Counted from the first letter of the stretch, positions 32,863 through 48,443 are shown. The stretch is DNA of 54,514 bases from an uncultured Bacilli bacterium (GCA_944331805.1 CALVIS010000002.1:1-54514); one strand, 5' to 3'. Notes: a model not told the origin generated them from the sequence alone. Numbers and translations: made by a program.

Positions 32863-32871
32863 AACATCCCT

Positions 32872-33369
32872 CTAATCATTAACTTCAAGTTTATCTAATA
32901 GTTTATTAATAATGTTATCTATCTCTTCATCTTTACCTTTAAGACTAATTAAAAGTTTATTAGTATTAGATGACTGAGGTAACATATATCCTGCCTCTCT
33001 AAATAAATCTTCAACCATTACTTTATTAGAATGAATTAAAGTCCTATATAAACGTTTTTCATCATCATCACTAGATTTACTAATAAGATACTTTAAAGTC
33101 TTAATTTGTTCTATCTTACTATCAGCAAGTTTAAATAATTCACTGACAACTCTTTTATCTTTTACTTTCTGTTTAGGATAAACTCTAGGTAACATACTAA
33201 TTGCTTTTGATGGACAAGCTGCTGCACATGCACCACATCCAATACATTTATCAAAATCTATCTGCCCAGTCTCATTATCAGTCGCCCCAGTTGGACAGAC
33301 AAAAAGACATAAACAATCTTTAGTACATATTTTTAAGTCACGATAAGCATATCTTTCACTTTTCTCCAT
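32872..33369 (-). CDS. 4Fe-4S dicluster ferredoxin-domain protein
   Basis: CxxCxxCxxxCP-like clusters: CLCLFVCPTG and CIGCGACAAACP. Confidence 0.8.
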   Translation of the reverse strand: MEKSERYAYRDLKICTKDCLCLFVCPTGATDNETGQIDFDKCIGCGACAAACPSKAISMLPRVYPKQKVKDKRVVSELFKLADSKIEQIKTLKYLISKSSDDDEKRLYRTLIHSNKVMVEDLFREAGYMLPQSSNTNKLLISLKGKDEEIDNIINKLLDKLEVND

Positions 33370-33370
33370 A

Positions 33371-34009
33371 TTAGCACACCTCCAATATCTTAAGACTAGG
33401 AACCTTACAAACAGGACAAACCTTAGGAGGATTATCTCCTATATAAACAAAACCACAAATATCACAAACCCATATCTTTGTATTTTTAATATAATCTATT
33501 CCCTTTTCTTTATAAGTATCAATTACTACTTTCATAATATTAGTACTCTTACTAGCCCAGTTAATAACTCTTTTAGCACCTCTATCATCATATTTAGAAA
33601 ATACTTCCATTGCTTTACTAAAGCTATTAATATCATTATCTATCATATTAATAACATCATCTAAACTACCAGTTTTATCTTCTTCTAAACCTTCATAATG
33701 TTTAGATAATTCTCTAAATAAATCTTTCTCTTCTTCTAAATACTGTTTTTCACAACCACGAGCTAAGTTAGAACAAATTAAAGATATCTCATAGTTAGAT
33801 AATTCTCTTAAATCATCATCTACTTCTTCTATAACCTCAACTTTAGACTCTTCTTTTATTTCCTCTTTTTCTTCTTTAACTTCTTCAAATAAACTTTTAG
33901 GGGCACCACAGGCTGGACATTTCCAATCATCTGGTAAATCTTCAAACTTTACTTTTTCTTTCGCATCATCATAAATATAACCACAAATAGTACAACGATA
34001 TTTTTTCAT
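33371..34009 (-). CDS. Protein with N- and C-terminal rubredoxin-type Cys4 motifs
   Basis: [12 protein letters not shown]...[10 protein letters not shown] (canonical rubredoxin) and [10 protein letters not shown]...VCPVCKVP (rubrerythrin-type C-terminus). The middle helical region has no ExxH that I can see. Confidence 0.7.
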
Positions 34010-34119
34010 TCTAACCTCCATACATAAATCATATCAAACTAAGAAAAATAAATCTACAATAATTGACATTTTTATATTCTTCTATATAATAATAACTAAA
34101 TTAAAAGGAGGGATATCTA

Positions 34120-34806
34120 ATGGATAAACAAAAACGTTGTATAGACATATATGGCGAACCATTAAAAATAGGAGATGAAGTTATTCCTGTTCTTGAAGAA
34201 GCTTTAATCATAGGAATAAGTGGTACTATTTCTAAAATAGAATATAGTGAAAAATATAATAATCATTACATTACAATAACAGATAAACAAGGTAATGTTC
34301 TATTAGAAGGTGTTGATGCAAGATGCTATACTACTAAAGAAAGATTCAATGAAAGAGAAAATGAAGATTTTATATATAGTATTAATTTTTATAATAAAAG
34401 ACTCATGCTCCAAACATCTTTACCATTAAGTAATATAACAAGTGTAGATTATGAAATACCAGAGGATACAACTTTTGCCACCATCAACGCTAGACACACA
34501 TTTGAAAAAGATGCATATTCTATTGATGATGTTTATTCTCTAATTATTGATAACAAAGTCAAAGTATGTCATGATAAAGAGGATGATTATTATTACTTAA
34601 TGAATGAAGAAACTTATGACTATCATGATATAAGTAGTAATTATAGAATCTTTAAAAATGAAGAAGAATTTAAAGCTTTTATTAAAGAAATAATTAAATA
34701 TTTTAATAATACAGATTTAACTCACATTAACACAGAAGAAATATTTGATGAAAATGAAAAGGCTAAAGTCTTTGAAAAAAGCCTAATAAATAGATTAAGT
34801 AATTAA
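34120..34806 (+). CDS. Hypothetical protein
   Basis: 228 aa, strong SD AAAGGAGGG, own terminator. No motif recognised. Confidence 0.55.
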   Translation: MDKQKRCIDIYGEPLKIGDEVIPVLEEALIIGISGTISKIEYSEKYNNHYITITDKQGNVLLEGVDARCYTTKERFNERENEDFIYSINFYNKRLMLQTSLPLSNITSVDYEIPEDTTFATINARHTFEKDAYSIDDVYSLIIDNKVKVCHDKEDDYYYLMNEETYDYHDISSNYRIFKNEEEFKAFIKEIIKYFNNTDLTHINTEEIFDENEKAKVFEKSLINRLSN

Positions 34807-34810
34807 ATAT

Positions 34811-34848
34811 AGAGAACTTATTCATAAAAAATAAGTTCTCTCTTTTTC
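34811..34848 (+). terminator. Intrinsic terminator
   Basis: agagaacttatt-cataaaa-aataagttctct followed by ctttttc. Confidence 0.75.
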
Positions 34849-34849
34849 T

Positions 34850-35764
34850 CTAATTATACCTTTTACCATTAACTAATGGTTTTAAAACTCTAACCTTAAC
34901 ATTAGGAAGTTCAGTTTTAGGAATACAATCTATATTTATATTTTCGAAAAGACTAATTTTATCTAATAGTTCCTTATCTTTACTATTCTTTAATCTATTA
35001 AACAATTCTATTTCATTAAAACTATACAAGTCATCATAACTAATATAACCTCTATCAATAGATAATTTTGTTATAGTAGCAAGTAACTGCATCATATAAT
35101 TATCTTCGTTAGTATGACAATACAAATCTATACTTTTACTAACATCAATTATTTTAGAAACAACATCTCTATTAGTAAAACCAACCTCATCTTCATTATC
35201 TTCATTTTTAAATACTCTAACATCATTAATAATTTTTTTAATATCATCTTTATTGATATTTTTAGTCCAACCTATACCAGTTAAAATAACACCATCTAAC
35301 CTATCAGCACAACATTTAGGCCTATCATTATCAACAATACTAAATTTCTTAAAGTTGATAATCTCATCAACATCTATATTATCCTCTTTTAAACACTTAA
35401 GTAAATACTTATCACTTTTAATGATATCTTCCGTAAGTTCTTCTGTACTTTCTTGTTTTTCATAATCTTCATTCATATAATCTATAACATGTGAAAAACA
35501 AGGAGTTGCCACATCGTGAAATAAAGCTGCTACAGTCATAGTCCTATCTTTAGTTACTTTATAAGTTAGTAAAGAAGTTGTAAGTGAATGAGCAAATCTA
35601 CTAATATATTCACTAAAATCATAAACACTTTTAGAAGCAAAATCCATTCCACAAAAATAACCAACTCTCATTAATCTAACTAAAGATGGGCATTCAAAAT
35701 ACTTCCTAAGAAATAATGGCATATTCTTATAATCTAATTGTTCTAAATAAAACTGTAATAACAT
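34850..35764 (-). CDS. HD-domain phosphohydrolase-like protein
   Basis: RFAHS...AALFHDVATPCFSH (H...HD...H pattern). Confidence 0.6.
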   Translation of the reverse strand: MLLQFYLEQLDYKNMPLFLRKYFECPSLVRLMRVGYFCGMDFASKSVYDFSEYISRFAHSLTTSLLTYKVTKDRTMTVAALFHDVATPCFSHVIDYMNEDYEKQESTEELTEDIIKSDKYLLKCLKEDNIDVDEIINFKKFSIVDNDRPKCCADRLDGVILTGIGWTKNINKDDIKKIINDVRVFKNEDNEDEVGFTNRDVVSKIIDVSKSIDLYCHTNEDNYMMQLLATITKLSIDRGYISYDDLYSFNEIELFNRLKNSKDKELLDKISLFENINIDCIPKTELPNVKVRVLKPLVNGKRYN

Positions 35765-35776
35765 ATAGAACCCTCC

Positions 35777-36343
35777 CTAATAATATTTTCTCATTTTCTT
35801 TAATATAAGTCTACCCTTTTCTTTATCAGTAATATATTCTAAAAACTCTTTTCTACTTACTTCTTCAAAATCATTTACAAATCTTTTGTTCTCTAATCTA
35901 TTTCCAAGATATATTAAATATTGTCTTTTAATTTCTAACTCTTCTAATAATATTTCTTTCATAGACATAGTTGTATAAAACTCTCTTCCATTAGTATAAA
36001 CAAAAGAATCTCTTTCTTCATAAAAAGGACACCTTGCATCATAAATAACTCTATCATTTTGAATAATAAAAGAACCAACTATATTTTTATTAGGATCAGA
36101 TACTTTTAAACCACCACTACTTTTAAAATCATTACCTTTAATATCAGAACAACCAGCTAGTAACTTTCTATCTTTTAAATAAATAATACCCTTAGTACTT
36201 TTTAATTTTTCAAAAGTGTCAAAACTTACATATCTAAGATTAAAAGAATGTTCAGACTCTCTTAAATATTCTAAAACAGAGATATTTTCTGGAACATTTA
36301 TAGATTCATAATAAATTGTTTGGTTTTTAATAATTTCTTTCAT
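35777..36343 (-). CDS. Hypothetical protein (first gene of a pair with the HD protein)
   Basis: 188 aa, SD AAGGAGG, 12-nt gap to the HD gene. Confidence 0.55.
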   Translation of the reverse strand: MKEIIKNQTIYYESINVPENISVLEYLRESEHSFNLRYVSFDTFEKLKSTKGIIYLKDRKLLAGCSDIKGNDFKSSGGLKVSDPNKNIVGSFIIQNDRVIYDARCPFYEERDSFVYTNGREFYTTMSMKEILLEELEIKRQYLIYLGNRLENKRFVNDFEEVSRKEFLEYITDKEKGRLILKKMRKYY

Positions 36344-36437
36344 TAGAACCTCCTTGAAAACATTCTATCATAGTTGGTAATAAATTAAAAGAAAGAACAA
36401 GACTTAATACTTGTTCTAACTAATTTCAAGTGAATAA

Positions 36438-36584
36438 CTCCACATAGCTTCCGTCACTCACGCTTCCTTATTAATTAATTTAGGTTGTGATAGTCGTGAA
36501 GTTGCCAAAAGATTAGGAGATACTGTTGAAGTTATAGAAAGTACATATTATCATATGTTTCCAGGCAAGAAAAACATACTGTAG
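36438..36584 (+). pseudogene. 3'-terminal remnant of a tyrosine recombinase (phage integrase family) gene
   Basis: The frame translates LHIASVTHASLLINLGCDSREVAKRLGDTVEVIESTYYHMFPGKKNIL*. This matches the C-terminal box II (RHxHASLLIxxG...RLGH...T..Y.H with the catalytic Tyr). There is an in-frame stop immediately upstream (36435-36437) and no N-terminal part. Confidence 0.7.
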
Positions 36585-36630
36585 ATGTATTGAATAACTT
36601 TAAAAAAAGAGGTAAATAAGGGGTAAATAA

Positions 36631-36667
36631 AAAAAATAATATTAAAACCCTTACGAAACATAAGGGG
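36631..36667 (-). terminator. Terminator after the serine recombinase gene
   Basis: ccctta-cgaaaca-taaggg (36648-36666), then a T-rich run on the minus strand. Confidence 0.5.
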
Positions 36668-38194
36668 TTAATTACTAATTGGTGGAGCTGAAGTACCCAT
36701 AAGTGAACTTTCTATATCACTTACACGTGGTATCTTCTTCTCATAAGTTTTATTTTGTGTATTAAATATTATAGTTATACTGTCATCATACAAATAGACC
36801 TTATAGACTAGTGTATTAATTAACAACCTTCTGTACTTAATATCATCTATATTTCCTTTTCTCATTTGTGTTAAGAAAAATCTTACTTGTGGAACAGTCA
36901 ATTTAATAGATTGGCTTTCTTCTATAGCAATTTCATTTTTAATATTTGTTAATTCCACTTCAATTTTTTGTATCTCTTCAAATATAGATGTTTTAACTGT
37001 ATCTATATCACACATTTTAAGACTATTAAATAAATTGTTTTTCTGTTTCTCTAATTCTTTTAATTTTCTGTTAAGTCTTTTTAATTCTCCACTATCCATA
37101 TTTTCTTTGGCTAATTTTACAACGGTTTCAGCTATTTTATTTATATTATCATCAGTCAAAAGATTCCTAGCTTGTTCTACTACTAAATCTTCAATATAAT
37201 CTTTCTGAATAGGCTTTTTATCACAAAAACCAATTCTCGAATTATTACATTTATAATAAGTATGCAATTTCCCAGTTTTAGATGTACCACTATGGCCTGT
37301 CATCATTTCTTTACAATGACCACAAAATAATTTAGTAGTTAATAAATATTCTGTTTTTGCTCTTGCTCGTGCAGGAGCTTTTTTATTCTTTTTCATCATA
37401 TCTTGCACCTTGTTAAAAGTCTCATCATCAATAATCCTTGGTATGCCATCTTTTATCTCCATTTCTTTATAATTGTAAATGCCAACATATTTTTTATTTA
37501 ACAACATTTTTCTAAGACTATTTTTATTAAATTCTTTGCCTAATCCTGTTTTAATTCCCTTATCATTCAAATAATTAATAATATCAGCGACTCTTTTTCC
37601 TTTTGCATACATATCAAATATTTCTTTTACTATATGGACTGTCTCTTCATCTATTGCGAATTTCTTCTTTTTAACAATTTTACCATTTACATCAGTAAAA
37701 TTACTATCTACTTCTATAAGTTTTAATCCTAGAGGAACACTACCACCATTATAATAGCAATTTTCAGCATTTATTTTCATTCCTCTTTTTATCTTCTGAC
37801 CTAACTCAACAGAGAAATATTCTGCCATACCTTCAAGTACACTCTCCATTAATACACCACTTGCGTCATCAGAAATATTTTCTCTACTAGAAAAGACTCT
37901 AACACCATTTTTACTTAACTTCTTCTTATATATTGCACTATCATATCTATTACGAGCAAAACGGTCTAATTGATAAACTAAAATGCCCTCAAAAGTTTTT
38001 TTATTACTGTCCTCAATCATCTGCAAAAACTGTGGTCTATTATCATTCGTTCCAGTTGTAGCCCTATCTATATATTCATGAATAATATTATAATTATGGT
38101 CTTTTGCATATTTTCTACAATATTCTAACTGACCTTCAATGGACTGTTCATTTTGATTATGAGAACTATATCTAGCATATATTACTACATTCAT
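36668..38194 (-). CDS. Large serine recombinase
   Basis: VVIYARYSSHNQ (catalytic Ser), resolvase domain, recombinase domain, zinc ribbon CGHCKEMM...YYKCNN, and a C-terminal coiled coil. Confidence 0.9.
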   Translation of the reverse strand: MNVVIYARYSSHNQNEQSIEGQLEYCRKYAKDHNYNIIHEYIDRATTGTNDNRPQFLQMIEDSNKKTFEGILVYQLDRFARNRYDSAIYKKKLSKNGVRVFSSRENISDDASGVLMESVLEGMAEYFSVELGQKIKRGMKINAENCYYNGGSVPLGLKLIEVDSNFTDVNGKIVKKKKFAIDEETVHIVKEIFDMYAKGKRVADIINYLNDKGIKTGLGKEFNKNSLRKMLLNKKYVGIYNYKEMEIKDGIPRIIDDETFNKVQDMMKKNKKAPARARAKTEYLLTTKLFCGHCKEMMTGHSGTSKTGKLHTYYKCNNSRIGFCDKKPIQKDYIEDLVVEQARNLLTDDNINKIAETVVKLAKENMDSGELKRLNRKLKELEKQKNNLFNSLKMCDIDTVKTSIFEEIQKIEVELTNIKNEIAIEESQSIKLTVPQVRFFLTQMRKGNIDDIKYRRLLINTLVYKVYLYDDSITIIFNTQNKTYEKKIPRVSDIESSLMGTSAPPISN

Positions 38195-38913
38195 TCCTTT
38201 TTCCTCCTTATCTCTTCTTCTAATTTATATAATTGTTCTTCCATATTTAATATAAAAAGTTTATTAAATTGAGAGCTAGGTATTATTAAATCTTCTCCAC
38301 TTTGTTTATCTCTAATTATTTTTACATCATCTGTTGCTTTAAGTTCTAACTCTTTAGTAGATTCATTAACATAATAAAGATTGCTTGTTGTGTCGTATGT
38401 ATGCCACAAATAACTTCCTATATATTCAAAAACTTTAGATTCAGGCTCTTTAGATATAAGATAGTTAATTGTTTTGAGTATTTGCGAACTTGTAAATACA
38501 TTATCCTCTTCTTTTTCATTTTTTGCATTCTTTTTAAATTCATTTAATACTTCTATAGCATAATCATTTAAACCCGTTACTTTGTTAACTATTTTCCAAT
38601 CATCTTTGGTACTTTTAAAATTTGATAATCCTAATAAATAATCTGTAGAGACATTAAAATAATTTGCCATCTTAATTATTTTATCAGCATTAGGAATTTG
38701 TTCAGCCTTAACATACGCATTAACACTAGCTTTTCCCAGTTTTAAATCTCTACATAGGTCTGCCTCATTTAGATTTCTTTCGTCTAAACAAAGACATAAT
38801 CTTCGTGCAAACTCAACCATACTAACATTACCTTTAGCATTTTCTAAAGCTTTCTTCTCATCAAATAAATCAATCTTTCTTTCAGTTTTTTCATATTTTC
38901 TTAATTTCGTCAT
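38191..38913 (-). CDS. XRE-family HTH repressor (cI/Stl-like) with a long C-terminal domain lacking a peptidase signature
   Basis: EFARRLCLCLDERNLNEADLCRDLKLGKASVNAYVKAEQIPNADKIIKMANYFNVSTDYLLG. ATGA overlap with the recombinase gene. I see no S24 Ser/Lys motif. Confidence 0.75.
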   Translation of the reverse strand: MTKLRKYEKTERKIDLFDEKKALENAKGNVSMVEFARRLCLCLDERNLNEADLCRDLKLGKASVNAYVKAEQIPNADKIIKMANYFNVSTDYLLGLSNFKSTKDDWKIVNKVTGLNDYAIEVLNEFKKNAKNEKEEDNVFTSSQILKTINYLISKEPESKVFEYIGSYLWHTYDTTSNLYYVNESTKELELKATDDVKIIRDKQSGEDLIIPSSQFNKLFILNMEEQLYKLEEEIRRKKE

Positions 38914-38925
38914 TTTACACCTCAT

Positions 38926-39109
38926 TCCTTCCTACGAATTTTTTTATTGTTTTCTAGCCATTTTAACCAAGTAACGAATTATTTACAAAATAGCAAATTT
39001 TAATGTTATTATGGTGGTGTCGTTGTTGAAGAACGGCGAAAAATTTTCGTTCGTTAAAGCAAATATATCATTTGATGTTGTTGTTGTCAAGATATAAAAG
39101 GAGGAGTAT
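38926..39109. promoter_or_regulatory. Divergent control region between the repressor and the Cro-like gene
   Basis: Near-palindrome cgaaaaattttcg (39037-39049). ACGAATT recurs at 38934-38940 and 38974-38980, and inverted TTCGT copies lie at 39046-39055. Confidence 0.5.
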
Positions 39110-39298
39110 ATGAAAAAAGCAAATAACGATATCAGAGAAGCTATAAACAAAGCTAATCTGAAGTATTATCAAGTAGCTAAAGCTTATGGACTATCAGATA
39201 GTAATTTTACTAAATTACTTCGATTCGAATTAAGCAATGATAAAAAAGAAAAAATACTAAAAATTATTAAGCAACTAGAAAAGTCAAATCACATTTAG
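39110..39298 (+). CDS. Small Cro-like HTH protein
   Basis: 62 aa; LKYYQVAKAYGLSDSNFTKLLR HTH-like segment. Strong SD AAAGGAGGAG. Divergent from the repressor. Confidence 0.6.
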   Translation: MKKANNDIREAINKANLKYYQVAKAYGLSDSNFTKLLRFELSNDKKEKILKIIKQLEKSNHI

Positions 39299-39324
39299 AA
39301 ATTTAGAAGGGAGATGTTTCTAAT

Positions 39325-39468
39325 ATGCTTAGTGAAAAACAAATTAAACAAATAGCTAAAGAAATTGTAAATGATATTGATAAGTTTGTTAGAGAACATC
39401 AAACTCAATATGATTTATTTCTTAAGGAGGTAGAAAAGAAAAATCATGCTAACAAAAACAAAATATAA
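39325..39468 (+). CDS. Small ORF (47 aa), unknown function (possible excision/directionality or regulatory factor)
   Basis: Below the track cutoff. ATG 39325 follows AGAAGGGAG. Reads MLSEKQIKQIAKEIVNDIDKFVREHQTQYDLFLKEVEKKNHANKNKI. Confidence 0.35.
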   Translation: MLSEKQIKQIAKEIVNDIDKFVREHQTQYDLFLKEVEKKNHANKNKI

Positions 39469-39835
39469 AAATAAGAAAGTAATAGTAGATGGAATTTTAT
39501 TTGATAGTAAATTAGAAGCTGAAAGATATAAGCAACTAAAAGAGCTAGAGCAAAAGGGAGTAATAAAAAACTTGCAATTACAAAAGAATTTTGAATTAAT
39601 TCCAAAATTTAAAAAAAGAGGTAAAGTATATCGAAAAACGTCATATAGAGCTGATTTTACTTACACTATTGTAGCAACTGATGAAACTATAGTAGAAGAT
39701 ACTAAAGGTTTTAAAACAGACGTTTACTTATTAAAGAAAAAACTATTCGAATATAAATTCCCTAATTTAGAAATTAAAGAGGTGCAAAATGAAAAAAAGC
39801 AATCAAAAAAATACAGTTTTAGATATAGAAGATAA
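39446..39835 (+). CDS. DUF1064 phage protein (nuclease-fold)
   Basis: KYKNKKVIVDGILFDSKLEAERYKQLKELEQKGVIKNLQLQ...YRADFTY...EDTKG is the DUF1064 pattern. Confidence 0.7.
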   Translation: MLTKTKYKNKKVIVDGILFDSKLEAERYKQLKELEQKGVIKNLQLQKNFELIPKFKKRGKVYRKTSYRADFTYTIVATDETIVEDTKGFKTDVYLLKKKLFEYKFPNLEIKEVQNEKKQSKKYSFRYRR

Positions 39836-40091
39836 TTCATTTGAAATTATTCCTCAATTAGGTGGAATTATAGTTTACCCACATTTAGAAAGTCCCATTA
39901 CAATAAGTTACAATGCTTGGAAAAAAGTTTATGAATATATAACTGAACAAGAAGAGAATGAATATTTAATGTTTATTGATAAAGAAAAAAGGGAAGTAGA
40001 AGAGGAAGAAGAATCAAAACAATTTAGTAGCCCTCAAACTGTACACGTTACGTATGAGGCTGATGAAAAAACATTAGAAGAAGAGGAATGA
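39789..40091 (+). CDS. Hypothetical acidic protein
   Basis: 100 aa, SD AAAGAGGTG, E-rich C-terminus. Confidence 0.5.
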   Translation: MKKSNQKNTVLDIEDNSFEIIPQLGGIIVYPHLESPITISYNAWKKVYEYITEQEENEYLMFIDKEKREVEEEEESKQFSSPQTVHVTYEADEKTLEEEE

Positions 40092-40095
40092 TAAA

Positions 40096-41931
40096 ATGTT
40101 AAAATTTATAGAATTAAATGCAGATAAATCCCCAAAGACCAATTTTAGTATTACTTATTCTAATCTAGACAGGTTAGAAAATGCTGGACTCCTTTTAAAT
40201 AGGAATACTGTTATTGTGGATTTTGATAATGATAATTTTGAAGAACAAAGAATCATTAACTATTTTATCCAAAACTTTCCTACTCTTAGTGTAGAGACAG
40301 ATAGAGGGATTCATTTATATTATTCTATCCCCAAAAATATCAACATTAAAAAAAGAGCTGATTTAATAACAGTAGGAGGTTTTCAAGTTGATTATTTAAC
40401 AGGAGATAAAGCTTATGCTATTGTTAAAAGAAGAGGAGTTCAACGTAAAACTAACCAGCCTTTAACACTAGATAATTTACCAGAATTACCAGTTTTATTA
40501 TATCCACTTTTTAAGCAAAAAAATTTACTTAGTGGTATGGTAAAAGGAGACGGAAGAAATGAAGCACTATTTCATCATTTACGTTATGTTCTAGAAGAAT
40601 ATAAAACGGTAAAAATAGAGGGACTTGGAGATTTTATTAATAGTAATGTTTTTAAAGAACCCTTATCATTAAAGGAATTAAATAATATTATAAATAGTGT
40701 TCCTAACTATGTCGATTTAGAAAAAGCATATACAGGTAATCCAAAAGATATGATTGCTTTTGCAAAATTCATGGTTAAGATACTCGATATAAAATACTAT
40801 AATAATCTTCTATATTTTAAAGATGATTTAAAGTATAGTACAAACCAAATTAAATTAAAAAGATTAATGGCTCAATATCTAGAGCTTAAAACTACTCAAG
40901 ATAATGAAGCTATAAATCAAATGTATAAATATGCCAATTTTATTGAAAATGGCAGTGATAATTTTTATGTAAAAATAAGAAATGGGATTATTGTAGAAGA
41001 TAAAGTAATAAATCAAGATTGTGGCTTTACACCTTTTTATTTAGATATAGAGTATAATCCTATGGCTTATGATGAAAATGTAGATAAATTTTTAAATTTT
41101 ATATGTCTTGATGATAAGCAATTAAGGATAGTTATAGAAGAATTATTAGGTCATTGTCTTATGATTGATAGATTTCCCCATAAAATGTTTTTTCTTATAG
41201 GAAAAGGAGCTAATGGTAAATCAACCTTTGTAGAGATGATTACTAAATGGACTGGAGAACTATCTAGTCATATTGATATAGCCAATTTTGATGATAGTAC
41301 AAGTATCGCTTCTCTCATTGGAAAACTAGTAAATATTGCAGATGATGTTGACGCAATTTATTTTGAAAAGTCAAAAAATTTAAAGACAATGGCTAGTGGA
41401 AATACAATAGGTGCAAGACCTATTTATTCACAGCCCATTACATTTAAAAATTCTGCGACCTTAATTTTTACGGCCAACGAGCCTCCTACCTTCAAAGATA
41501 AATCTGATGGAATTATCAGAAGGCTAATGGTTATTCCTTTTAGGAATAAAGTAAAAAGAAAGATTTATAACCTTGAGGAATTATTAAGTACAGATAATGC
41601 CAAAAGTTATTTACTTAATTTAGCTCTAAAAGGATTAAAACGTCTATATGACAATGGACTAGAATTTAGTGAGTGTAAAGTTATAAGTGAATCAACTAAA
41701 GAGTACCAATTAGAGAATGATACTGTACTTTCATTTTTAAATGATTATGCTCACAGTATCGAAAATAAAGAAATTGCTTCAATATATTCTCAGTATATTT
41801 CTTACACCGAGAGTATGAAGCAAAAACCTCTAAGCAAAAATAAATTTACTCGTAGGCTTAAAGAAATAGGCTATACAACAAAAGTTAAGAACATAAATGG
41901 TTATAGTGTAAGAATCTATATAAAAGAATAA
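40096..41931 (+). CDS. Prim-Pol / P4-D5-type primase-helicase (replication initiator)
   Basis: N-terminal VIVDFDND...DRGIHLYY (Prim-Pol DxD and sGxH motifs). Central Walker A FFLIGKGANGKSTF and Walker B NIADDV (SF3 helicase). C-terminal winged-helix-like tail. Confidence 0.85.
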   Translation: MLKFIELNADKSPKTNFSITYSNLDRLENAGLLLNRNTVIVDFDNDNFEEQRIINYFIQNFPTLSVETDRGIHLYYSIPKNINIKKRADLITVGGFQVDYLTGDKAYAIVKRRGVQRKTNQPLTLDNLPELPVLLYPLFKQKNLLSGMVKGDGRNEALFHHLRYVLEEYKTVKIEGLGDFINSNVFKEPLSLKELNNIINSVPNYVDLEKAYTGNPKDMIAFAKFMVKILDIKYYNNLLYFKDDLKYSTNQIKLKRLMAQYLELKTTQDNEAINQMYKYANFIENGSDNFYVKIRNGIIVEDKVINQDCGFTPFYLDIEYNPMAYDENVDKFLNFICLDDKQLRIVIEELLGHCLMIDRFPHKMFFLIGKGANGKSTFVEMITKWTGELSSHIDIANFDDSTSIASLIGKLVNIADDVDAIYFEKSKNLKTMASGNTIGARPIYSQPITFKNSATLIFTANEPPTFKDKSDGIIRRLMVIPFRNKVKRKIYNLEELLSTDNAKSYLLNLALKGLKRLYDNGLEFSECKVISESTKEYQLENDTVLSFLNDYAHSIENKEIASIYSQYISYTESMKQKPLSKNKFTRRLKEIGYTTKVKNINGYSVRIYIKE

Positions 41932-42041
41932 ATTACCTTTTATTACAAAACATAAATTATTAAGTAATCAATTAAATCCATATAAACTCATATTAAAAAG
42001 ATAATAATTACAAAATTACTATATTTATTTAATTTAATAAT

Positions 42042-42106
42042 AAAAATAAATAAATATAAATAAATAAATAAATAAATATAAATAAATAAATAAATAAATA
42101 AATAAA
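42042..42106. repeat. (AAAT)n microsatellite, 14 units in blocks of 3, 5 and 6 separated by AT
   Basis: Parsed directly: aa(aaat)3 at (aaat)5 at (aaat)6 aaag. Lies in the gap downstream of the primase gene (stop at 41931). Confidence 0.9.
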
Positions 42107-42120
42107 GAGTATCTCTAAAA

Positions 42121-42141
42121 ATATGTAATATGTAATATGTA
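42121..42141. repeat. Three tandem ATATGTA heptamers
   Basis: atatgta atatgta atatgta, 16 nt before ATG 42158. Confidence 0.9.
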
Positions 42142-42157
42142 ATTTTGAGGAGGAAAA

Positions 42158-42484
42158 ATGGAAGAAGAATATATTAAAAGATTTATTTTATCTAACAACA
42201 GTCCAATAATTTTTGAAAGCTCATTTCAAAGCTATTATACACAGTATGTACTCTACGTAAAGAGCGAAGGAGTCAAGCCAGTAAGTAAAAATAGATTCAG
42301 TCGTTATTTAAGAAAATATGGTTTTGAAACAAAAGTTGTCCGTAATCAAAATAGTAGATTGTGCGAAAGAGTTATAACAATGCCTACAAATATATTATTA
42401 CTTTGGAATGCTATAAGTAATAGAAAGCTAAAGGAGGAAAATGATGAAACAAAAACACGCACTACAAATAACGTTTCTTTATGA
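42158..42484 (+). CDS. Small protein resembling the C-terminal domain of the adjacent primase
   Basis: FQSYYTQYVLYVKSEGVKPVSKNRFSRYLRKYGFETKVV compares with primase residues IYSQYISYTESMKQKPLSKNKFTRRLKEIGYTTKVK. Confidence 0.6.
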   Translation: MEEEYIKRFILSNNSPIIFESSFQSYYTQYVLYVKSEGVKPVSKNRFSRYLRKYGFETKVVRNQNSRLCERVITMPTNILLLWNAISNRKLKEENDETKTRTTNNVSL

Positions 42485-42653
42485 AACTGTAGAAGGAAAA
42501 TGGGGATTTAAAACTATTACCATAAACCTTGAAGAAAAATATAAAAATAGAAAAAAGTTTAGCACTCGCCAATTAAATCAGTTAATTAAAGAACAGCTAA
42601 ACCTAAAGACTGTATGTATTTCAAACATTACCCACATTTATAAGAACACGTAA
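42441..42653 (+). CDS. Hypothetical small protein
   Basis: 70 aa, SD AAGGAGG, overlaps the upstream gene. Confidence 0.45.
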   Translation: MMKQKHALQITFLYETVEGKWGFKTITINLEEKYKNRKKFSTRQLNQLIKEQLNLKTVCISNITHIYKNT

Positions 42654-42666
42654 CACGTAACAAAAT

Positions 42667-42698
42667 AGGAAGAGCTAATATTAGATTCTCTTCCTTTT
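42667..42698. terminator. Bidirectional terminator between convergent modules
   Basis: aggaagag-(13 nt)-ctcttcct. Confidence 0.55.
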
Positions 42699-42700
42699 AC

Positions 42701-43492
42701 TTATATTTGAGTTATAGTTATCTGTTTTGCTCCAAAAGGTATAAAAGAATTATAATCTTTTACTATAACATCATCTACTTTTATCTCATATAAACAAAAT
42801 TCCTCTACATAGTCATTATAAGACATTCCAGTATTAGCTAATTGATTGTTCATATCACTAGGTAATATAGCCCAAATATTATCACTCCAATTAATTATTT
42901 TATGGTTATCATCAATATAATCATTCAATGTACTAAAAACAGGGTCTAACGGCCTATATGAGATATTACTTGTATTATTATTAAAAACAAGTTGAGTTGA
43001 TTCATCTATTGGATATTCTTCTAAATTACCTAAATTATCTATTTCTATATATCTATATGTATTATCATCAGAATTAGAATTTATATCACTTACATAACTA
43101 CATTTAAAAGTATCCTCATTCTCAATAGAACATTCACTAAAAGCTTCTCCATCAAGAGATAAAGAAAAGCCATCTTCATTTTCTGTAAATTCATAGTGAT
43201 TAGTCATATCAACATCATTATAATATTGATTATTAGCTTTAGTTACTACATAGAAAGTATTATCATCTGTAAAACAATATAGTTCTTTACCATATAGTAT
43301 ATCTTCCGTTAATTCATCAGGATTTTGTCCAGTATAATAACAACGGTTTGATAGCCTTGTTATATCTCTAAAATCTTCTATTTCTTCACTATTTTCATCA
43401 GCTAAAATAGTAATAAAAGTAGAAAAGCCAAAAAATATAATAACAAGCAATATCCATATTTTTGTTTTATTTTTTATATTATCTTTTTTCAT
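42701..43492 (-). CDS. Cargo protein 4: N-terminally anchored extracytoplasmic protein, unknown family
   Basis: TM segment IWILLVIIFFGFSTFITILA, then an acidic/aromatic-rich domain of about 220 aa. SD AAGGAAG. Confidence 0.6.
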   Translation of the reverse strand: MKKDNIKNKTKIWILLVIIFFGFSTFITILADENSEEIEDFRDITRLSNRCYYTGQNPDELTEDILYGKELYCFTDDNTFYVVTKANNQYYNDVDMTNHYEFTENEDGFSLSLDGEAFSECSIENEDTFKCSYVSDINSNSDDNTYRYIEIDNLGNLEEYPIDESTQLVFNNNTSNISYRPLDPVFSTLNDYIDDNHKIINWSDNIWAILPSDMNNQLANTGMSYNDYVEEFCLYEIKVDDVIVKDYNSFIPFGAKQITITQI

Positions 43493-43524
43493 ATTAAACT
43501 TCCTTTTCTTATACTTTATATCTA

Positions 43525-44406
43525 CTAATATTCTAAAGATAAAAGTAATTGTTCAGATTCTTTTGCAATGCCCCAAAGATTTTCATATTCATATTGAACT
43601 GAGGTCTCAAATAGCAAACTAGTAACATTTCTCACATTTGTATTTCTTAAAAATCTTTCTTCACAATAATTATTACCAGAGCATGGACTATAATCATATA
43701 TTACCGTATATCCACTTTCTTCTCCTCCAGCATAGGCTGTACATAGTTTTATAGAACTACCATCATAAAACCTATACAATGTTCCAGAAGGGAAAGAAGA
43801 ATCTAACTGCATTTGATAATCATAGCCATTTTGTGTTAATAATTCTTGGAATTTTTCAGTAGGACTAAATCTTATCCTACCATAAGGGGATTTATCAACA
43901 CCTATAGCTTTATCAAAAAAATCATAATAACTATCTAATTTTTTTAAAGATATTTCTTGATTATATGTATCTACAGTATCTATTTTTGTGAGACTTGTTA
44001 TATCATTATATTCAAAACTAAATGTATCATTACAAAATTCATTATAATAATTATGAGTAAAAGAATCTCTTATTTGTTCACTACTAATATGATTTTCTTC
44101 AACATCAATTAACATTTTGCAATTTAAATCTTTTGTATATTCATTAGAGTAATCTAAGTCAACATATAATTTTGTTAATTTATTATCAGCTTCACTATAT
44201 GACAAATTAGCTATTTGAACATCAGTTATCTCAGTCTTACTACTAGAAAAAAGCGAATTGTAAGAATATAATGCCACATACTCCTCAACTATTGAATCTA
44301 TTTCTTTAACATATAAAGCACTGTCATTATTACTATCATCAGTACACCCAGTTAAACTTATCGCTCCAACACTTAGTAAGAAAAGAATTAAAAGCTTTCT
44401 TCTCAT
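43525..44406 (-). CDS. Cargo protein 3: lipoprotein, unknown family
   Basis: Signal peptide + lipobox SLTGC. SD GGGAGGAG. Confidence 0.65.
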   Translation of the reverse strand: MRRKLLILFLLSVGAISLTGCTDDSNNDSALYVKEIDSIVEEYVALYSYNSLFSSSKTEITDVQIANLSYSEADNKLTKLYVDLDYSNEYTKDLNCKMLIDVEENHISSEQIRDSFTHNYYNEFCNDTFSFEYNDITSLTKIDTVDTYNQEISLKKLDSYYDFFDKAIGVDKSPYGRIRFSPTEKFQELLTQNGYDYQMQLDSSFPSGTLYRFYDGSSIKLCTAYAGGEESGYTVIYDYSPCSGNNYCEERFLRNTNVRNVTSLLFETSVQYEYENLWGIAKESEQLLLSLEY

Positions 44407-44440
44407 ACCAAATTACTCCTCCCATCTTTTAATTTATCTT

Positions 44441-45130
44441 TTAAGAATGTTTATTTATCTTATTTTTCATTTCTATTAGTACATTATAAACATCTTGTCC
44501 AAATACCCCGACATATATTTCTTGTCCATCTGTTAATAAAACAGATACATTATATACAGTTATAGTTTTATCTTTTTCAGTCATAAGATTTTCTTTAACA
44601 AGTAATTCCTTAACTTCACTCAATTTATATGTTTTTTCTATTAATTTTTCATCTTTCTTTGTAAAACTAAAATAAATTAGCTCTTTATCTTTTATGATTA
44701 AATATGTAAAGTCTAAATAATAAAACTTTTTTAAATATATTCCTATATTTTCATTTAACATTTCATCTAATTCTTTTAATTTATTAGTTAAATCATATTT
44801 TTTAACAATCTCATTTCTCTTTTTATTACGATTAAATGAGATTAGTAAAATAATTCCCCAAATAATAAACCATATAATATATTGAGATGTTGGTAAACCC
44901 GGAAAACTCCAAGGTAATTCGGGATATATCATTACCAAAAAGTTATAAATTAACTCTATTAAACATACAAAACTACTTACAAAGCCAAATACCCACTTTA
45001 AAACAAACATCATAATAAAATCAACAATAAAGCTTATAATAGTATTTCTAAAATTAATTGTTAATAAATCTAATATAAGTCCTACAATAATAACCCAAAT
45101 AACCGTTACAATAACCGTTAATATATCCAT
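44441..45130 (-). CDS. Cargo protein 2: polytopic membrane protein with soluble C-terminal domain, unknown family
   Basis: About four hydrophobic helices in the first ~100 aa, then NRNKKRNE and a beta-rich domain of about 120 aa. SD GAGAGGAG. Confidence 0.6.
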   Translation of the reverse strand: MDILTVIVTVIWVIIVGLILDLLTINFRNTIISFIVDFIMMFVLKWVFGFVSSFVCLIELIYNFLVMIYPELPWSFPGLPTSQYIIWFIIWGIILLISFNRNKKRNEIVKKYDLTNKLKELDEMLNENIGIYLKKFYYLDFTYLIIKDKELIYFSFTKKDEKLIEKTYKLSEVKELLVKENLMTEKDKTITVYNVSVLLTDGQEIYVGVFGQDVYNVLIEMKNKINKHS

Positions 45131-45178
45131 ACAATACTCCTCTCTTCATATACTAACTATCCAATATTTATAAATTGT

Positions 45179-45535
45179 TTAGTCTCTCAATATGTCTAAT
45201 ACTACATCTTTATCACTATCTGCATATCTATAATAAGAATCCCCATCTGCTGACTCTAAGTAACCAAACCATATTGTTTCTGAATCATAATAATTGATTA
45301 GTTCATCATGAGTCGTTGTACATTCAACTAAAATAATACCATCATCTTCTTGAGAATTTGCTATACAGCTAAGTTCAGATTTTGTAGGAGTATCAAAAGC
45401 TTGTTCAGAAATATATTCTAAAGCAGCTTCTTCAGAATTCCATTTATCTACTTCTGCTATTTCATTTTCATTACCACAGCCTGTAACACCTATTAATATA
45501 CATACTAGAATAGAAAAGAAACATAGTTTTTTCAT
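45179..45535 (-). CDS. Cargo protein 1: small lipoprotein, unknown family
   Basis: MKKLCFFSILVCILIGVTGCGNE (lipobox). ATG 45535 follows AAAGGAG. I reject the track extension to 45592. Confidence 0.6.
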   Translation of the reverse strand: MKKLCFFSILVCILIGVTGCGNENEIAEVDKWNSEEAALEYISEQAFDTPTKSELSCIANSQEDDGIILVECTTTHDELINYYDSETIWFGYLESADGDSYYRYADSDKDVVLDILRD

Positions 45536-45592
45536 TTCCAAATTTCTCCTTTCTAAAAAATAAACCCTTGAAACTTTTATAATCCATACCAC

Positions 45593-45701
45593 ACTCCTAT
45601 CTCTCTTATATTAACTATTATATATTATTGCAATACATTTTGCAATGCATACTTTTTGTGCATTTTACAATACGATAAATATGTACAGGAGGTAATACAA
45701 A
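45593..45701. promoter_or_regulatory. Divergent control region with TGCA-centred palindromes
   Basis: Perfect palindrome tattgcaata (45626-45635), followed by ttgcaatgcat, gtgcatt and ttacaatac. Confidence 0.45.
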
Positions 45702-45890
45702 ATGTCTTTTCAAATTAAACCATACAAAAAAGAAACAGAAAACAAGACTATAAGGTTTCCTATTACACTAATCGCTAGAATAGAAAAAGCTATTAAGAAT
45801 AAAGATATTACTTTTTCTAGATTTGTTATTCAAGCTTGTGAGTATGCTCTAGATAATATGGAAACCGATAAAAAAGACAAATCCCACTAA
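45702..45890 (+). CDS. Ribbon-helix-helix (CopG/Arc-like) DNA-binding protein
   Basis: KTIRFPITLIARIEKAIKNKDITFSRFVIQACEYAL fits the beta-strand + two-helix RHH pattern. Confidence 0.6.
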   Translation: MSFQIKPYKKETENKTIRFPITLIARIEKAIKNKDITFSRFVIQACEYALDNMETDKKDKSH

Positions 45891-45906
45891 TTATAATTTA
45901 CATAAT

Positions 45907-45941
45907 AAAAACGATTAAGTATCTTGCCTAACCGTTTTTTT
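45907..45941 (+). terminator. Imperfect intrinsic terminator after the RHH gene
   Basis: aaaacgattaag...ctaaccgtttt followed by a T run. Confidence 0.45.
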
Positions 45942-46013
45942 CTTTGAAATATTTAATTTTATATTAACTACGAAACCTCCTACAAAGTATAAAAAGTTCG
46001 TTTTATTTTCTAA

Positions 46014-46394
46014 TGGTGGAGATGAGGAGATTCGAACTCCTGTCCAAAAATAAAGCTACATAAACTTCTACAAGTTTAGATGATTAAGAAACTTCGAACT
46101 ATTTTCTAGTAACCATCAACTAATAAAACAGTCCTAGTCTAAAAGATTCCATCATAGTCTAGACAAACTATAACTATATCCTGCTAAAATAAACCATCTT
46201 AACTTAACACAGGAAATTAAGAAAAGACAGTGCATTTACCTATACTAGGCGAAAGCTAACTCAGTGTTTTTATTAAATAAGTTAGCAAATGCTGTTTTAA
46301 TACTGTTTCCAGTTATATTTAATTTAGTTTGTAACGTAAACAACTCGACTTGCCATTTATGCTCTATTATTCCTGTCGAAACCAAAGCATCCCC
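46014..46394 (-). ncRNA. ssrA: tmRNA (SsrA)
   Basis: The reverse complement starts GGGGATGCTTTGGTTTCGACAGG and ends GGACAGGAGTTCGAATCTCCTCATCTCCACCA (tRNA-Ala-like acceptor/T-arm). The internal tag frame reads ...AFANLFNKNTELAFA, with stop TAG at 46245-46247. Confidence 0.9.
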
Positions 46395-46406
46395 AAATAC
46401 ACCTAT

Positions 46407-46435
46407 ATTATATCATAAAAGTATCAATGTATCAA
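46407..46435 (-). promoter_or_regulatory. Sigma-A promoter of ssrA
   Basis: Minus strand TTGATA-17 nt-TATAAT, 12 nt before the mature 5' GGGG. Confidence 0.6.
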
Positions 46436-46482
46436 CTACTTTTTTATACCAATAATTACCAATAAAAACTACAATTTTTAAG

Positions 46483-46511
46483 TTGCACATAAGAGCTTAA
46501 CATGATACTAT
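46483..46511 (+). promoter_or_regulatory. Candidate promoter of the small hydrophobic-peptide gene
   Basis: TTGCAC-17 nt-TACTAT. Confidence 0.5.
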
Positions 46512-46533
46512 TAAATTAGGAATATTTAGTTAT

Positions 46534-46727
46534 TTAGGTACTATCCCCCTAGCTTATATTTTATAATGTGAAAGGGGAGTTGATAATATGAGAAAAATAG
46601 AGAAATTCCTTTGTTATATCATATTTTCACTTGTTTTCATAATAATAGTTTTATTATTTATGTTAATAAAAATAGTACCTACTCCTTAGAGTGGTACTAA
46701 ACCAACAATAAACGGGATAGTACCTAA
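46534..46727. repeat. 14-nt perfect inverted repeat bracketing the small ORF
   Basis: ttaggtactatccc (46534-46547) and gggatagtacctaa (46714-46727), checked base by base. Confidence 0.9.
46588..46689 (+). CDS. 33-aa hydrophobic peptide (type I toxin-like)
   Basis: MRKIEKFLCYIIFSLVFIIIVLLFMLIKIVPTP. SD AAAGGGGAG lies 8 nt upstream. Below the ORF-track cutoff. Confidence 0.45.
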   Translation: MRKIEKFLCYIIFSLVFIIIVLLFMLIKIVPTP

Positions 46728-46823
46728 CAGCCAAAGCTAGATATTCCCTTTTTTAATTTATGCAAATTTCTTTTACATATTCATATTATCATAAAATTAT
46801 TATTAATTCAAGATACATGTCAC

Positions 46824-47261
46824 TTATTTGTATTTATTAAGTTTAGCAGCTTCTCTCTTCAAATCTCTTTCTTTAATGCTTTCTCTCTTATCATAGTTTT
46901 TCTTACCCTTACATAACCCAAGTTCTATTTTCGCTTTACCACGTACAAAATATAGTTTTAAAGGAATAAGAGTATATCCTTCTAATTTAAGTTTATTATC
47001 TAACTTTTTAATCTCACTTTTATGAAGTAATAACTTTCTACTTCTTGTCTCCTCATGATTAAAGATATTACCTTCTTTATAATGGTCTATAAACATATTA
47101 ACAAGATAAACTTCGCCACCTCTTATAATTGCATAACTATCTTTAATAGAAGCTTTACCGAGCCTTATAGATTTAATCTCTGTTCCTTTTAAAACAATTC
47201 CTGCTTCATATGTATCTTCTATAAAATAATCAAATTTAGCACGTCTATTAATAATCTCCAT
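46824..47261 (-). CDS. smpB: SsrA-binding protein SmpB
   Basis: NRRAKFDYFIEDTYEAGIVLKGTEIKSIR...HKSEIKKL. ATG 47261 follows GGAGTG. The GTG at 47270 would overlap the upstream stop. Confidence 0.92.
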   Translation of the reverse strand: MEIINRRAKFDYFIEDTYEAGIVLKGTEIKSIRLGKASIKDSYAIIRGGEVYLVNMFIDHYKEGNIFNHEETRSRKLLLHKSEIKKLDNKLKLEGYTLIPLKLYFVRGKAKIELGLCKGKKNYDKRESIKERDLKREAAKLNKYK

Positions 47262-47266
47262 TACAA

Positions 47267-48442
47267 TCACTCCAAACTAGGCATCTCTATATTACTATCA
47301 AGAGATAACACTATATTTTTATATGTCTCATAATAATCTCTATAACCAGGAAGTAATTCATCATTTAAACTAGTATAAGGATAAACAACAAAGTTTCTTT
47401 TCTTTCCATAAGTAGAATGTGTATATAAAAGTTCTGCTTTAGGATTTCTTAACTCTATCGTACTAACACCGTTTTCCACAGACTTGTGGATATCTATACT
47501 AGCCATTAATCCCGTAAGACGTTCTACTCCTTCTTGGTCAGATATAAAGTTACCTAATGAATATATTACCATAGTCTTTCCAATAAAGGCAATGGGCTCT
47601 ACTACATGAGGATGACTTCCAATAATAATATCAACACCAAGACTAGATAGGTAGTTAGCAATTTCCTGTTGTGATGCACTAACACTAGTAGAATATTCTG
47701 TTCCCCAGTGCATCGCTACTATTACAACATCTACCTTATCACGAACCTTATCAATATCCTCTTTCGCTTTCTCAGGACTATAGACATTATTTAGATATTC
47801 TTTACCACTAGGAGTCTCTAACCCATTAGTCCAAGTAGTATAAGAAAAGAAAGAATAAGTAATACCATTAATATCTTTAATAACCGGCTTATCTCTATCT
47901 TCAAAAGATAAATAACTACCAGCCGTATAAACATCATCTTTACTATTCCAATAGTTTAAAGAATTGATTACACCTTGTTCTCCTTTATCCATCGTATGAT
48001 TTGTTGCAAGACTAACTAAGTTAAAACCTGCATCAATAAAAGCATCACCTACTTCATAAGGAGAATTAAACCTTGGATAATTAGATAGGCCTAACTCTGT
48101 TCCACCCAAAATAGTTTCTTGATTGTAATATTTTAAATCATAATCTTTTATTAAAGGCTTAATCTCTTTTAACATCGGTTTAAAGTCATAGCCATCACCT
48201 GTATAAGCATCATTATAAACAGTACTATGAATTAAAGCATCTCCTACCATCACAAGTGAAGCATCCATCTCTTTGTTCTTACTAACTACTTCTTCTTCCT
48301 GTTTTTGTTCCTTTACATCATCTTTTTTAACATTATCATTAGTCAAGCGATAATAAAATCCTAAACTCGCTCCAAATAAAACACCAATAAAAAGAATAAT
48401 AACAAAACGACCTAATACTGTTAACTTTCTTCTCTTTCTCAT
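47267..48442 (-). CDS. CapA/PgsA-family metallophosphatase-like membrane-anchored protein
   Basis: TM anchor; MVGDALIHS, LATNHTMD, AMHWGTEYS and GSHPHVVEP motifs of the CapA family. ATG 48442 lies 1 nt after the rnr stop. Confidence 0.8.
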   Translation of the reverse strand: MRKRRKLTVLGRFVIILFIGVLFGASLGFYYRLTNDNVKKDDVKEQKQEEEVVSKNKEMDASLVMVGDALIHSTVYNDAYTGDGYDFKPMLKEIKPLIKDYDLKYYNQETILGGTELGLSNYPRFNSPYEVGDAFIDAGFNLVSLATNHTMDKGEQGVINSLNYWNSKDDVYTAGSYLSFEDRDKPVIKDINGITYSFFSYTTWTNGLETPSGKEYLNNVYSPEKAKEDIDKVRDKVDVVIVAMHWGTEYSTSVSASQQEIANYLSSLGVDIIIGSHPHVVEPIAFIGKTMVIYSLGNFISDQEGVERLTGLMASIDIHKSVENGVSTIELRNPKAELLYTHSTYGKKRNFVVYPYTSLNDELLPGYRDYYETYKNIVLSLDSNIEMPSLE

Positions 48443-48443
48443 C

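Follow-up and report, generated by a model that had tools for sequence, protein, structure and literature searches.

A 9.3-kb phage-related island with a large serine recombinase at the tmRNA gene of an uncultured gut Bacilli bacterium

We analysed a stretch of 54,514 nucleotides from an uncultured Bacilli bacterium (GCA_944331805.1 CALVIS010000002.1:1-54514), hereafter the window, which carries a 9.3-kb integrative element next to the gene of its transfer-messenger RNA (tmRNA). With moderate confidence, we propose that the element is a phage-derived, self-replicating island resembling the 'type C' phage-inducible chromosomal islands (PICIs), and that it is a satellite dependent on a helper phage. 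It is a further member of an established class, the small chromosomal islands related to phages, with no new mechanism demonstrated. Its hosts are uncultured, low-GC, small-genome gut Bacilli or 'Tenericutes', a lineage for which we know of no described satellite, no literature search having been directed at this host group. A preliminary description of the window had already proposed a discrete integrative element with a large serine recombinase (LSR) beside tmRNA, and an unoccupied site in a related genome together with the domains of the recombinase establishes this. The noteworthy features are the targeting of the tmRNA CCA end, an integrase open reading frame (ORF) completed by the host, near-identical copies across species, an ORFan cargo that may act at the cell surface, and derivatives that have no recombinase.

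Boundaries of the element

The ends of the element were defined by alignment to an empty site. When species-representative genomes were scanned with the SmpB protein encoded nearby, a sister genome of the host (L001) was found, whose SmpB is 99% identical. The left flank of the window (27494-36691) aligns to this genome with 98.4% identity and the alignment resumes in the right flank (46003-50844), the two aligned segments overlapping by 24 bp. In L001 the same tmRNA gene is followed directly by the sequence of window position 36679 and downward. Relative to this unoccupied site, the insertion is exactly 9,334 bp long (36688-46021). An 8-bp crossover core, TGGTGGAG, is found at both ends. The left copy (36680-36687) is on the side of the recombinase gene, where the L001 alignment ends or overlaps. 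The right copy (46014-46021) is the CCA end of the host tmRNA gene (46014-46394, minus strand, predicted by ARAGORN), the integration target, which stays intact; its 3' end reads ...CTCCACCA and holds the right core copy. The reconstructed attP junction contains …TTTTATTTTCTAATGGTGGAGCTGAAGTACCC…. The left junction is identical next to five different host flanks, and one junction (L123/L140) shrinks the crossover to TGGTG. The junctions share the 8-bp core only, as expected of a large serine recombinase, and the short identity between the attachment sites is accompanied by a precise, conservative insertion. Neither attP nor attB showed informative dyad symmetry, with no more than 10 of 24 positions symmetric.

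The preliminary description had placed the element at 36631-46013. The position next to tmRNA stands, and the left end is corrected to the core at 36680-36687; the stretch from 36631 to 36679 belongs to the host and is the former ssrA terminator. The comparison of genomes that it had recommended for finding the attachment sites gave exact ends through the empty site, with boundaries beyond chance. It had also considered that the genes might be the edge of a larger prophage. The precise insertion relative to the empty site excludes this, as the insert is just 9,334 bp and host genes flank it on either side. The base composition is not distinctive (26.2% GC in the element, 27.5% in the window).

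Spread among hosts

The exact primase protein of the element was found in 39 sample blocks. Ten contigs were inspected, and within the length of each the genes are the same set, with the exception of L123, which lacks the gene for the 118-aa cargo protein described below. Copies in three contigs (L120, L121 and L122) are 99.8-99.95% identical to the window element, from which they differ by 0-1 substitutions and by microsatellite length. The tmRNA genes beside these copies are just 80%, 68.5% and 69% identical to the window tmRNA, respectively; they encode different tag peptides and their downstream flanks are unrelated. The intact element, with at least 99.8% identity, is present in at least four host species. 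The tmRNA-side half-site is conserved among these hosts and the other half is not. A near-identical element at the same position of tmRNA genes that differ by 20-31% indicates recent interspecies transfer. Since it is mobile across species, the element is not a conserved chromosomal block, the second objection raised in the preliminary description.

Integration, regulation and replication modules

SatelliteFinder recognizes five PICI core components, namely integrase, regulator, primase-replicase, capsid morphogenesis and terS (PMC10085698). By this count the element has three of the five (integrase, a repressor switch as the putative regulator, and primase-replicase), which corresponds to 'type C'. 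The ORFs were annotated against Pfam, PHROG, NCBIfam, PADLOC and PDB. In these profile searches all the genes listed in the preliminary description were found in the order given, and its layout of integrase and repressor diverging from cro, primase and origin was borne out; its list had left out one gene, for a 62-aa protein at 45702-45890 (plus strand).

The integrase lies at one end of the element, as in PICIs. It is an LSR of 508 aa (36668-38194, minus strand) with the Pfam domains Resolvase, Recombinase and Zn_ribbon_recom and a match to phrog_95 integrase (E 6e-114). Direct reading locates the catalytic serine in the N-terminal motif YARYSSHNQ (residues 6-14), and the best PDB match of the catalytic domain is the TP901-1 integrase. 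The gene of an XRE/CI-type repressor (38191-38925, minus strand) overlaps the LSR start by 4 nt (ATGA). The preliminary description was right about this ATGA overlap and about the lack of an S24 peptidase domain, and had called the protein as 240 aa, the ORF itself being 244 aa. HTH_3 (E 1e-7) is the sole domain detected, together with matches to phrog_2967/8/4. The PDB matches, ImmR and TP901-1 CI, cover the helix-turn-helix (HTH) region only. The HTH alone is confident in the AlphaFold2 (AF2) model (pLDDT 64.6), and the C-terminal domain is of unknown fold. The earlier label 'Stl-like' is at most tentative: temperate phages of Firmicutes, TP901-1 among them, commonly have XRE repressors that lack S24.

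The repressor gene is separated from the rightward genes by a divergent regulatory region (38926-39109), which contains a leftward promoter-like site (TTGACA-17-TATATT, 39090-39062) that is strong by its match to the consensus. The first rightward gene encodes a small Cro-like HTH protein of 62 aa (39110-39298, plus strand; phrog_17740, E 1e-11; HTH_26 below threshold). It is followed by a 47-aa ORF (39325-39468, plus strand), the sole gene besides the LSR that is present in all three elements of the clade (the window element, L088 and L148). Its position is that of xis in TP901-1 and SaPIs, and no similarity to the TP901-1 Xis was found. We infer that the 47-aa ORF is a candidate recombination directionality factor. 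The next two genes on the plus strand encode a DUF1064 protein (39446-39835; PF06356, E 2e-29; phrog_190 Holliday junction resolvase, E 6.5e-39) and a 100-aa ORFan with an acidic tail (39789-40091). Among 5.8 billion proteins searched, the homologues of the latter are all at least 85% identical, and its AF2 model (pLDDT 46) is unusable.

The replication gene encodes a primase-helicase of 611 aa (40096-41931, plus strand; DUF5906, Pox_D5, TIGR01613; phrog_864, E 2e-118). It combines an N-terminus like that of archaeo-eukaryotic primases, a PriCT-like domain, a D5/P4-type superfamily 3 (SF3) helicase and a C-terminal winged helix. The helicase part matches PDB 7ola 'DNA primase' (E 3e-19), which we take to be the SaPI5 primase-helicase. 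Of the Prim-Pol and SF3 helicase assignment made earlier, the helicase is supported by its families; Prim-Pol (E 0.093) and PriCT_1 (E 0.01) are below threshold in the N-terminus, where inspection of the sequence shows DxD (42-44) and GIH (71-73) motifs. The primase has a rough ratio of nonsynonymous to synonymous substitution rates (dN/dS) of 0.17. The nearest primases are 53-60% identical and lie on IMG/VR contigs of 12-37 kb, one of which (L082) encodes terS, terL, portal and head proteins.

An AT-rich repeat tract (41932-42157), the putative origin, lies directly downstream of the primase gene, and the two together make up the primase-replicase component of a PICI. The preliminary description had called this tract an iteron block. 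AT-rich repeats do occur at this position; they consist of an (AAAT)~16 microsatellite (42044-42106) and 3.4 copies of AATATGT (42120-42143), within 42036-42143. The length of (AAAT)n steps by 4 nt among otherwise identical copies of the element, and the distance from the primase stop codon to the next ORF is 207, 215, 223, 227 or 243 nt in L119-L127. This variable spacing identifies (AAAT)n as a hypervariable microsatellite inside the putative origin. Two small genes follow on the plus strand. The first encodes a 108-aa paralogue of the primase C-terminal winged helix (42158-42484), which is 50% identical over 36 aa to primase residues 562-597 and covers phrog_864 positions 572-649; its winged-helix matches are weak. 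The second encodes a 70-aa ORFan (42441-42653), which falls into 2 representative clusters among 1.84 billion proteins. Two other alleles of the 70-aa gene differ from the window allele by 2 and 5 synonymous substitutions and no nonsynonymous ones.

The recombinase reading frame crosses the junction

The LSR C-terminus reads …SAPP|ISN*. The two proline codons lie within the 8-bp core, and the last three codons (ISN) and the stop codon are in host DNA beyond it. The LSR ORF thus spans the junction, and the host supplies its last 0-17 codons and the stop codon. In this window the host also supplies the LSR gene with the old ssrA terminator, a hairpin (36648-36666) that directly follows tmRNA in the empty site. 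The cluster of LSRs at 90% identity has 56 members; the 15 listed are 505-522 aa long and show at least 10 different tails after …SLMGTSAPP, each dictated by a different host flank. Joining the ends of the element in silico gave an LSR ORF of 537 aa that ends …APPLENKTNFLYFVGGFVVNIKLNISKKKTVRQDT, so that the circular form would carry a hydrophobic tail of 32 aa. The sister element L148, whose LSR is 81% identical, has the same AGCTCCACCA core inside the 3' end of its LSR gene, which makes this arrangement a trait of the clade. A third LSR (L088, 3950-4094; 73% identical) has another C-terminal tail (…DVNSSKIIWSKYIF), without APP and the CTCCACCA core, which suggests that this branch of the clade targets a different site.

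A crossover within an ORF, with integrated and free forms that differ at the C-terminus, is a feature shared with the mycobacteriophages of integration-dependent immunity, which Broussard et al. are said to have described in 2013 and which reportedly carry attP inside the repressor gene. In the element the affected gene is that of the LSR, not the repressor, and the change concerns the last ~30 codons only. The read-through tail could be an integration-dependent switch acting on the stability or directionality of the recombinase, which, together with recognition of a near-universal tmRNA 3' half-site, could let a satellite that has no packaging genes cross species. We regard this idea as improbable.

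A helper-dependent satellite or another mobile element

The preliminary description had reported no capsid, portal, tail, terminase or lysin genes. In Pfam, PHROG and NCBIfam no ORF matched any of these, and with PADLOC added no ORF matched a holin, lysis, relaxase or defence family either. The absence of detectable virion genes (tail, holin and portal) within 36688-46021 is typical of PICIs. Helper dependence is suggested by the combination of a phage-type switch and replication genes with the lack of transfer genes, efficient interspecies spread and small size, the closest primases being encoded on contigs of 35-37 kb, about four times the 9.3 kb of the element. A serine recombinase does not speak against a satellite. 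SatelliteFinder treats serine and tyrosine integrases as exchangeable (PMC10085698), and satellites with large serine recombinases are known, namely PLEs and module 3 of the marine VEIMEs (PMC9618062). The preliminary description had noted that the described SaPI/PICI elements mostly use tyrosine integrases; a serine recombinase is not unusual in satellites, and the integrase class in itself is no novelty.

Several results weigh against a helper-dependent satellite. No terS, capsid-redirection or packaging-interference gene was recognised, and no ORF matched the small-terminase or capsid-morphogenesis families of PICIs in Pfam, PHROG or NCBIfam. Elements with three components, the 'type C', may be satellites or other mobile elements, as the authors of SatelliteFinder warn (PMC10085698). 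Seven ORFs are ORFans that gave no functional reading, and the AF2 models, of the 100-aa ORF and the repressor, were too poor to search; a hidden packaging function among the ORFans is possible. In IMG/VR, neither a 25-mer across the attP junction nor a conserved 19-mer of the right arm had a match. The 537-aa LSR of the circular form, constructed with six allele bodies, had no exact match among 15 billion predicted proteins. Bulk metagenomes are a weak place to look for excision or encapsidation. Finally, no helper phage was identified. The satellite advanced in the preliminary description thus stays a proposal: only three of the five PICI core components are present, and no helper phage, excised circle or virome copy was found. 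In two further searches, the cargo lipoprotein, the LSR and the ribbon-helix-helix (RHH) protein had no close relative in IMG/VR, where the sole RHH match (L152, 70% identical) belongs to an unrelated element, and megablast against 50,697 phage records gave no match, a distant mode giving one 200-bp match, in DUF1064.

If the element is a helper-dependent satellite, its life cycle could proceed as follows. In the integrated state, the repressor would be co-transcribed with the LSR and silence the rightward operon (cro, the 47-aa ORF, DUF1064, the 100-aa ORF and primase-helicase). Repression would be relieved by a signal that most likely is a phage protein, made by an infecting or an induced phage. 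The LSR and a small directionality factor, for which the 47-aa ORF is a candidate, would then excise the element as a circle, which the primase-helicase would replicate from the adjacent AT-rich repeat tract. Helper-phage particles would carry the DNA to new cells, the element mimicking the pac or cos site of the helper. Re-integration would need the tmRNA half-site only; the conservation of this half-site across hosts would explain a wide host range.

A second explanation has a lower but appreciable probability. The element may be a self-replicating island that moves without needing encapsidation, by natural transformation, vesicles or membrane fusion, after an excision and replication perhaps set off by phage infection and lysis, with its own LSR integrating it at tmRNA. 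The lack of any packaging gene or virome copy in our searches agrees with this, and the need for a conserved tmRNA half-site alone would make such a route workable. A precedent is provided by the type C islands of S. thermophilus (StCIs): virulent phages induce them, but their transfer was shown to occur through natural competence (PMC13376191). On the other hand, near-identity over 9.3 kb in hosts with a tmRNA identity of 68.5-80% implies an efficient vector, and phage-type resolvase and replication genes fit a life style oriented towards packaging.

It is improbable that the element is an integrative mobilizable element carried by the conjugation apparatus of a conjugative element in the same cell. 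Integrative conjugative and mobilizable elements of Firmicutes often have serine recombinases, and a related cassette (L152) lies beside a module with an FtsK-like protein and an LSR. However, the element itself has no relaxase family match in Pfam, PHROG or NCBIfam, no coupling protein, no FtsK-like translocase and no oriT recognisable from sequence alone, and its CI/Cro, DUF1064 and D5/P4 primase genes are of phage type, with their closest relatives in phages. Least probable is a defective prophage remnant, immobile as a unit and derived from the early region of a ~36-kb temperate phage by loss of the late genes: primase relatives sit in complete phages, the 108-aa ORF resembles a leftover primase C-terminus and truncated relics of the family occur at the same site (L133, L137 and L140), but this explanation is largely refuted by the precise empty site and by the recurrence of the same 9.3 kb of genes, the ORFs unbroken and the two junctions present, in the 39 sample blocks and at least four host species, and it also conflicts with the purifying selection on small ORFs and cargo and with the compact left half retained in L148.

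Comparison with known systems

The closest described analogues of the element are type C islands such as the StCIs, which are phage-inducible (PMC13376191). The element shares with them the 7-20-kb size class, an integrase at one end, a repressor with a divergent early operon, a primase/replicase, the absence of virion and lysis genes and of a recognisable terS, accessory genes at the far end, and interspecies spread at one conserved site. Unlike the StCIs, which have a tyrosine integrase, direct repeats of 16-18 bp and restriction-modification or abortive infection genes, it has an LSR, an 8-bp core, a 'Tenericutes'/Bacilli host and ORFan lipoprotein cargo; our knowledge of it comes from sequence alone. 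With SaPIs and classical PICIs it has in common the order of integrase, repressor, divergent cro-like gene and primase/replicase, followed directly by an AT-rich repeat origin. It differs from SaPIs in that no terS, ppi, cpm or ccm module was found, in the class of its integrase and in having no demonstrated helper phage.

Integration by an LSR is shared with the V. cholerae PLEs and module 3 of the marine VEIMEs (PMC9618062), to which no sequence relationship was detected. The PLEs, of ~18 kb, differ from the element in encoding a replication initiator of their own along with many anti-ICP1 genes, and the VEIMEs are, unlike the element, defined by recovery from virions. The lysogeny module of TP901-1 resembles the left part of the element, with an LSR, a CI-type repressor without S24, a small divergent gene like Cro or MOR and a small early-operon ORF at the excisionase position. 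The element has no late genes, and its 47-aa ORF is dissimilar to Xis.

The element provides an exactly delimited and evidently active mobile element in an uncultured gut 'Tenericutes'/Bacilli lineage. Its natural serine integrase targets the conserved tmRNA 3' end and has worked in hosts with quite different tmRNA genes; it may be useful as a broad-host integration tool. If helper dependence is true, the element adds a satellite of Gram-positive type with a serine integrase and no packaging gene. If it is false, the element represents another StCI-like case of 'type C PICIs' that move by another route.

Cargo operon and right arm

Four genes form an operon that is convergent to the replication genes (42701-45592, minus strand). 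They encode a 263-aa protein with an N-terminal membrane anchor, a 293-aa lipoprotein (LTGC), a 229-aa multi-pass membrane protein and a 118/137-aa lipoprotein (VTGC), the lipoboxes being read directly. None of these proteins had a match in Pfam, PHROG or PADLOC, and PADLOC on the cargo and flanking ORFs gave weak HTH matches only. The 293-aa lipoprotein is an ORFan, with homologues that are all at least 97% identical; the ORFan status of the 293-aa, 100-aa and 70-aa proteins refers to the libraries of 5.8 and 1.84 billion sequences. The rough dN/dS is 0.2-0.65 for the 293-aa gene and ~0.3 for the 229-aa gene, and the 263-aa gene has too few differences for an estimate. The values for the 293-aa, 229-aa, primase and 70-aa genes indicate purifying selection and argue that these are real, constrained genes.

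The operon is preceded by a region that resembles a divergent promoter and operator (45593-45701), with TTGCAAT(A/G)CAT repeats. On its other side lies the gene of the 62-aa RHH protein that was missing from the preliminary list (NF041551 of the YlcI/YnfO family, 31.1 bits with a cutoff of 30; phrog_949), divergent from the cargo promoter region. The identical RHH protein was found in 456 sample blocks, and its contexts include variants without one or more cargo genes and 5'-truncated relics. The 70% identical RHH homologue in L152, an IMG/VR contig (2400-3424 and 6664-12672), has similar TTGCAAT/TGCAT repeats upstream and is likewise divergent from an operon of unknown proteins; this cassette lies beside a module of XRE, FtsK-like and LSR genes and beside prophage endolysin and tail-fibre genes. 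That an unrelated element has this arrangement too makes a regulator of the cassette likelier than an excision factor. We therefore regard the RHH protein as the probable regulator of the cargo cassette. The RHH protein was also considered as the directionality factor, which is less likely for a gene tied to a divergent accessory operon. The lipoprotein and membrane protein operon and its RHH regulator appear to be accessory cargo, with a possible role at the cell surface such as superinfection exclusion.

The right arm, which includes the second core copy (45891-46021), is nearly invariant, with 0-2 differences over 128 nt in variants that diverge by 3-7% in their genes. This conservation exceeds the ~50 bp needed for a serine-integrase site, so that a further cis-acting role is possible, for example as a terminator or packaging signal.

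Related and derived elements

Related islands appear to be present at the tmRNA hotspot of these genomes as tandem arrays and as relics. Truncated relics of the family occur at the same site in L133, L137 and L140. In L123 (8975-9029), the core at the right end of a full element leads into ~50 nt that resemble the left end of a mini-element, up to the end of the contig, which suggests a tandem array. The mini-element itself, of ~3.2 kb (L133 1126-4320; L140 1126-4330), has no recombinase. It is bounded by the same core and right arm, and contains a 197-aa ORF with an HNH-like CHHIDED motif and no Pfam match, the RHH gene and two genes of the cargo operon. One possibility is that it is a non-autonomous derivative that relies on mobilisation in trans, like the elements known as CIMEs. 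No related islands were found downstream of ssrA in 80 related species genomes.

In the window, conserved host genes and the island are separated by a variable block of 2.6 kb (34077-36679). This block contains a 228-aa ORF (plus strand), the gene of a 304-aa HD-domain protein (minus strand), a 188-aa ORF (minus strand) and the relic of a tyrosine-integrase C-terminus (~36441-36587, plus strand; …THASLLINLG…RLGDTVEVIESTYYHMFP). L001 and L119 have the block, and L036 and L003 do not. It has the look of an earlier island, now decayed, in the same tmRNA hotspot.

The sister element L148 (33-5951) occupies the same locus downstream of tmRNA in a related host, with the same core and gene order. Its LSR, Cro, DUF1064 and 47-aa proteins are 81%, 80%, 64% and 58% identical to those of the window element, respectively. 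Its repressor is just 31% identical and its primase is unrelated, being an 815-aa protein of the D5_N type, and in the left half it retains this compact architecture. In L088, with 73% identity in the LSR and 41% in the 47-aa ORF, repressor and helicase are different again. A ~10-kb island in L142 (361-10124) encodes a tyrosine integrase, a repressor 51% identical to that of the window element, a DUF5906 helicase and an Xis/AlpA-like protein (HTH_17); among its cargo are a ClpP-family protease, a protein of metallo-beta-lactamase fold (a match to the anti-Pycsar Apyc1 family) and a single-stranded DNA-binding protein. Judged from these gene sequences, the apparent swapping of modules in L148, L088 and L142 is phage-like mosaicism.

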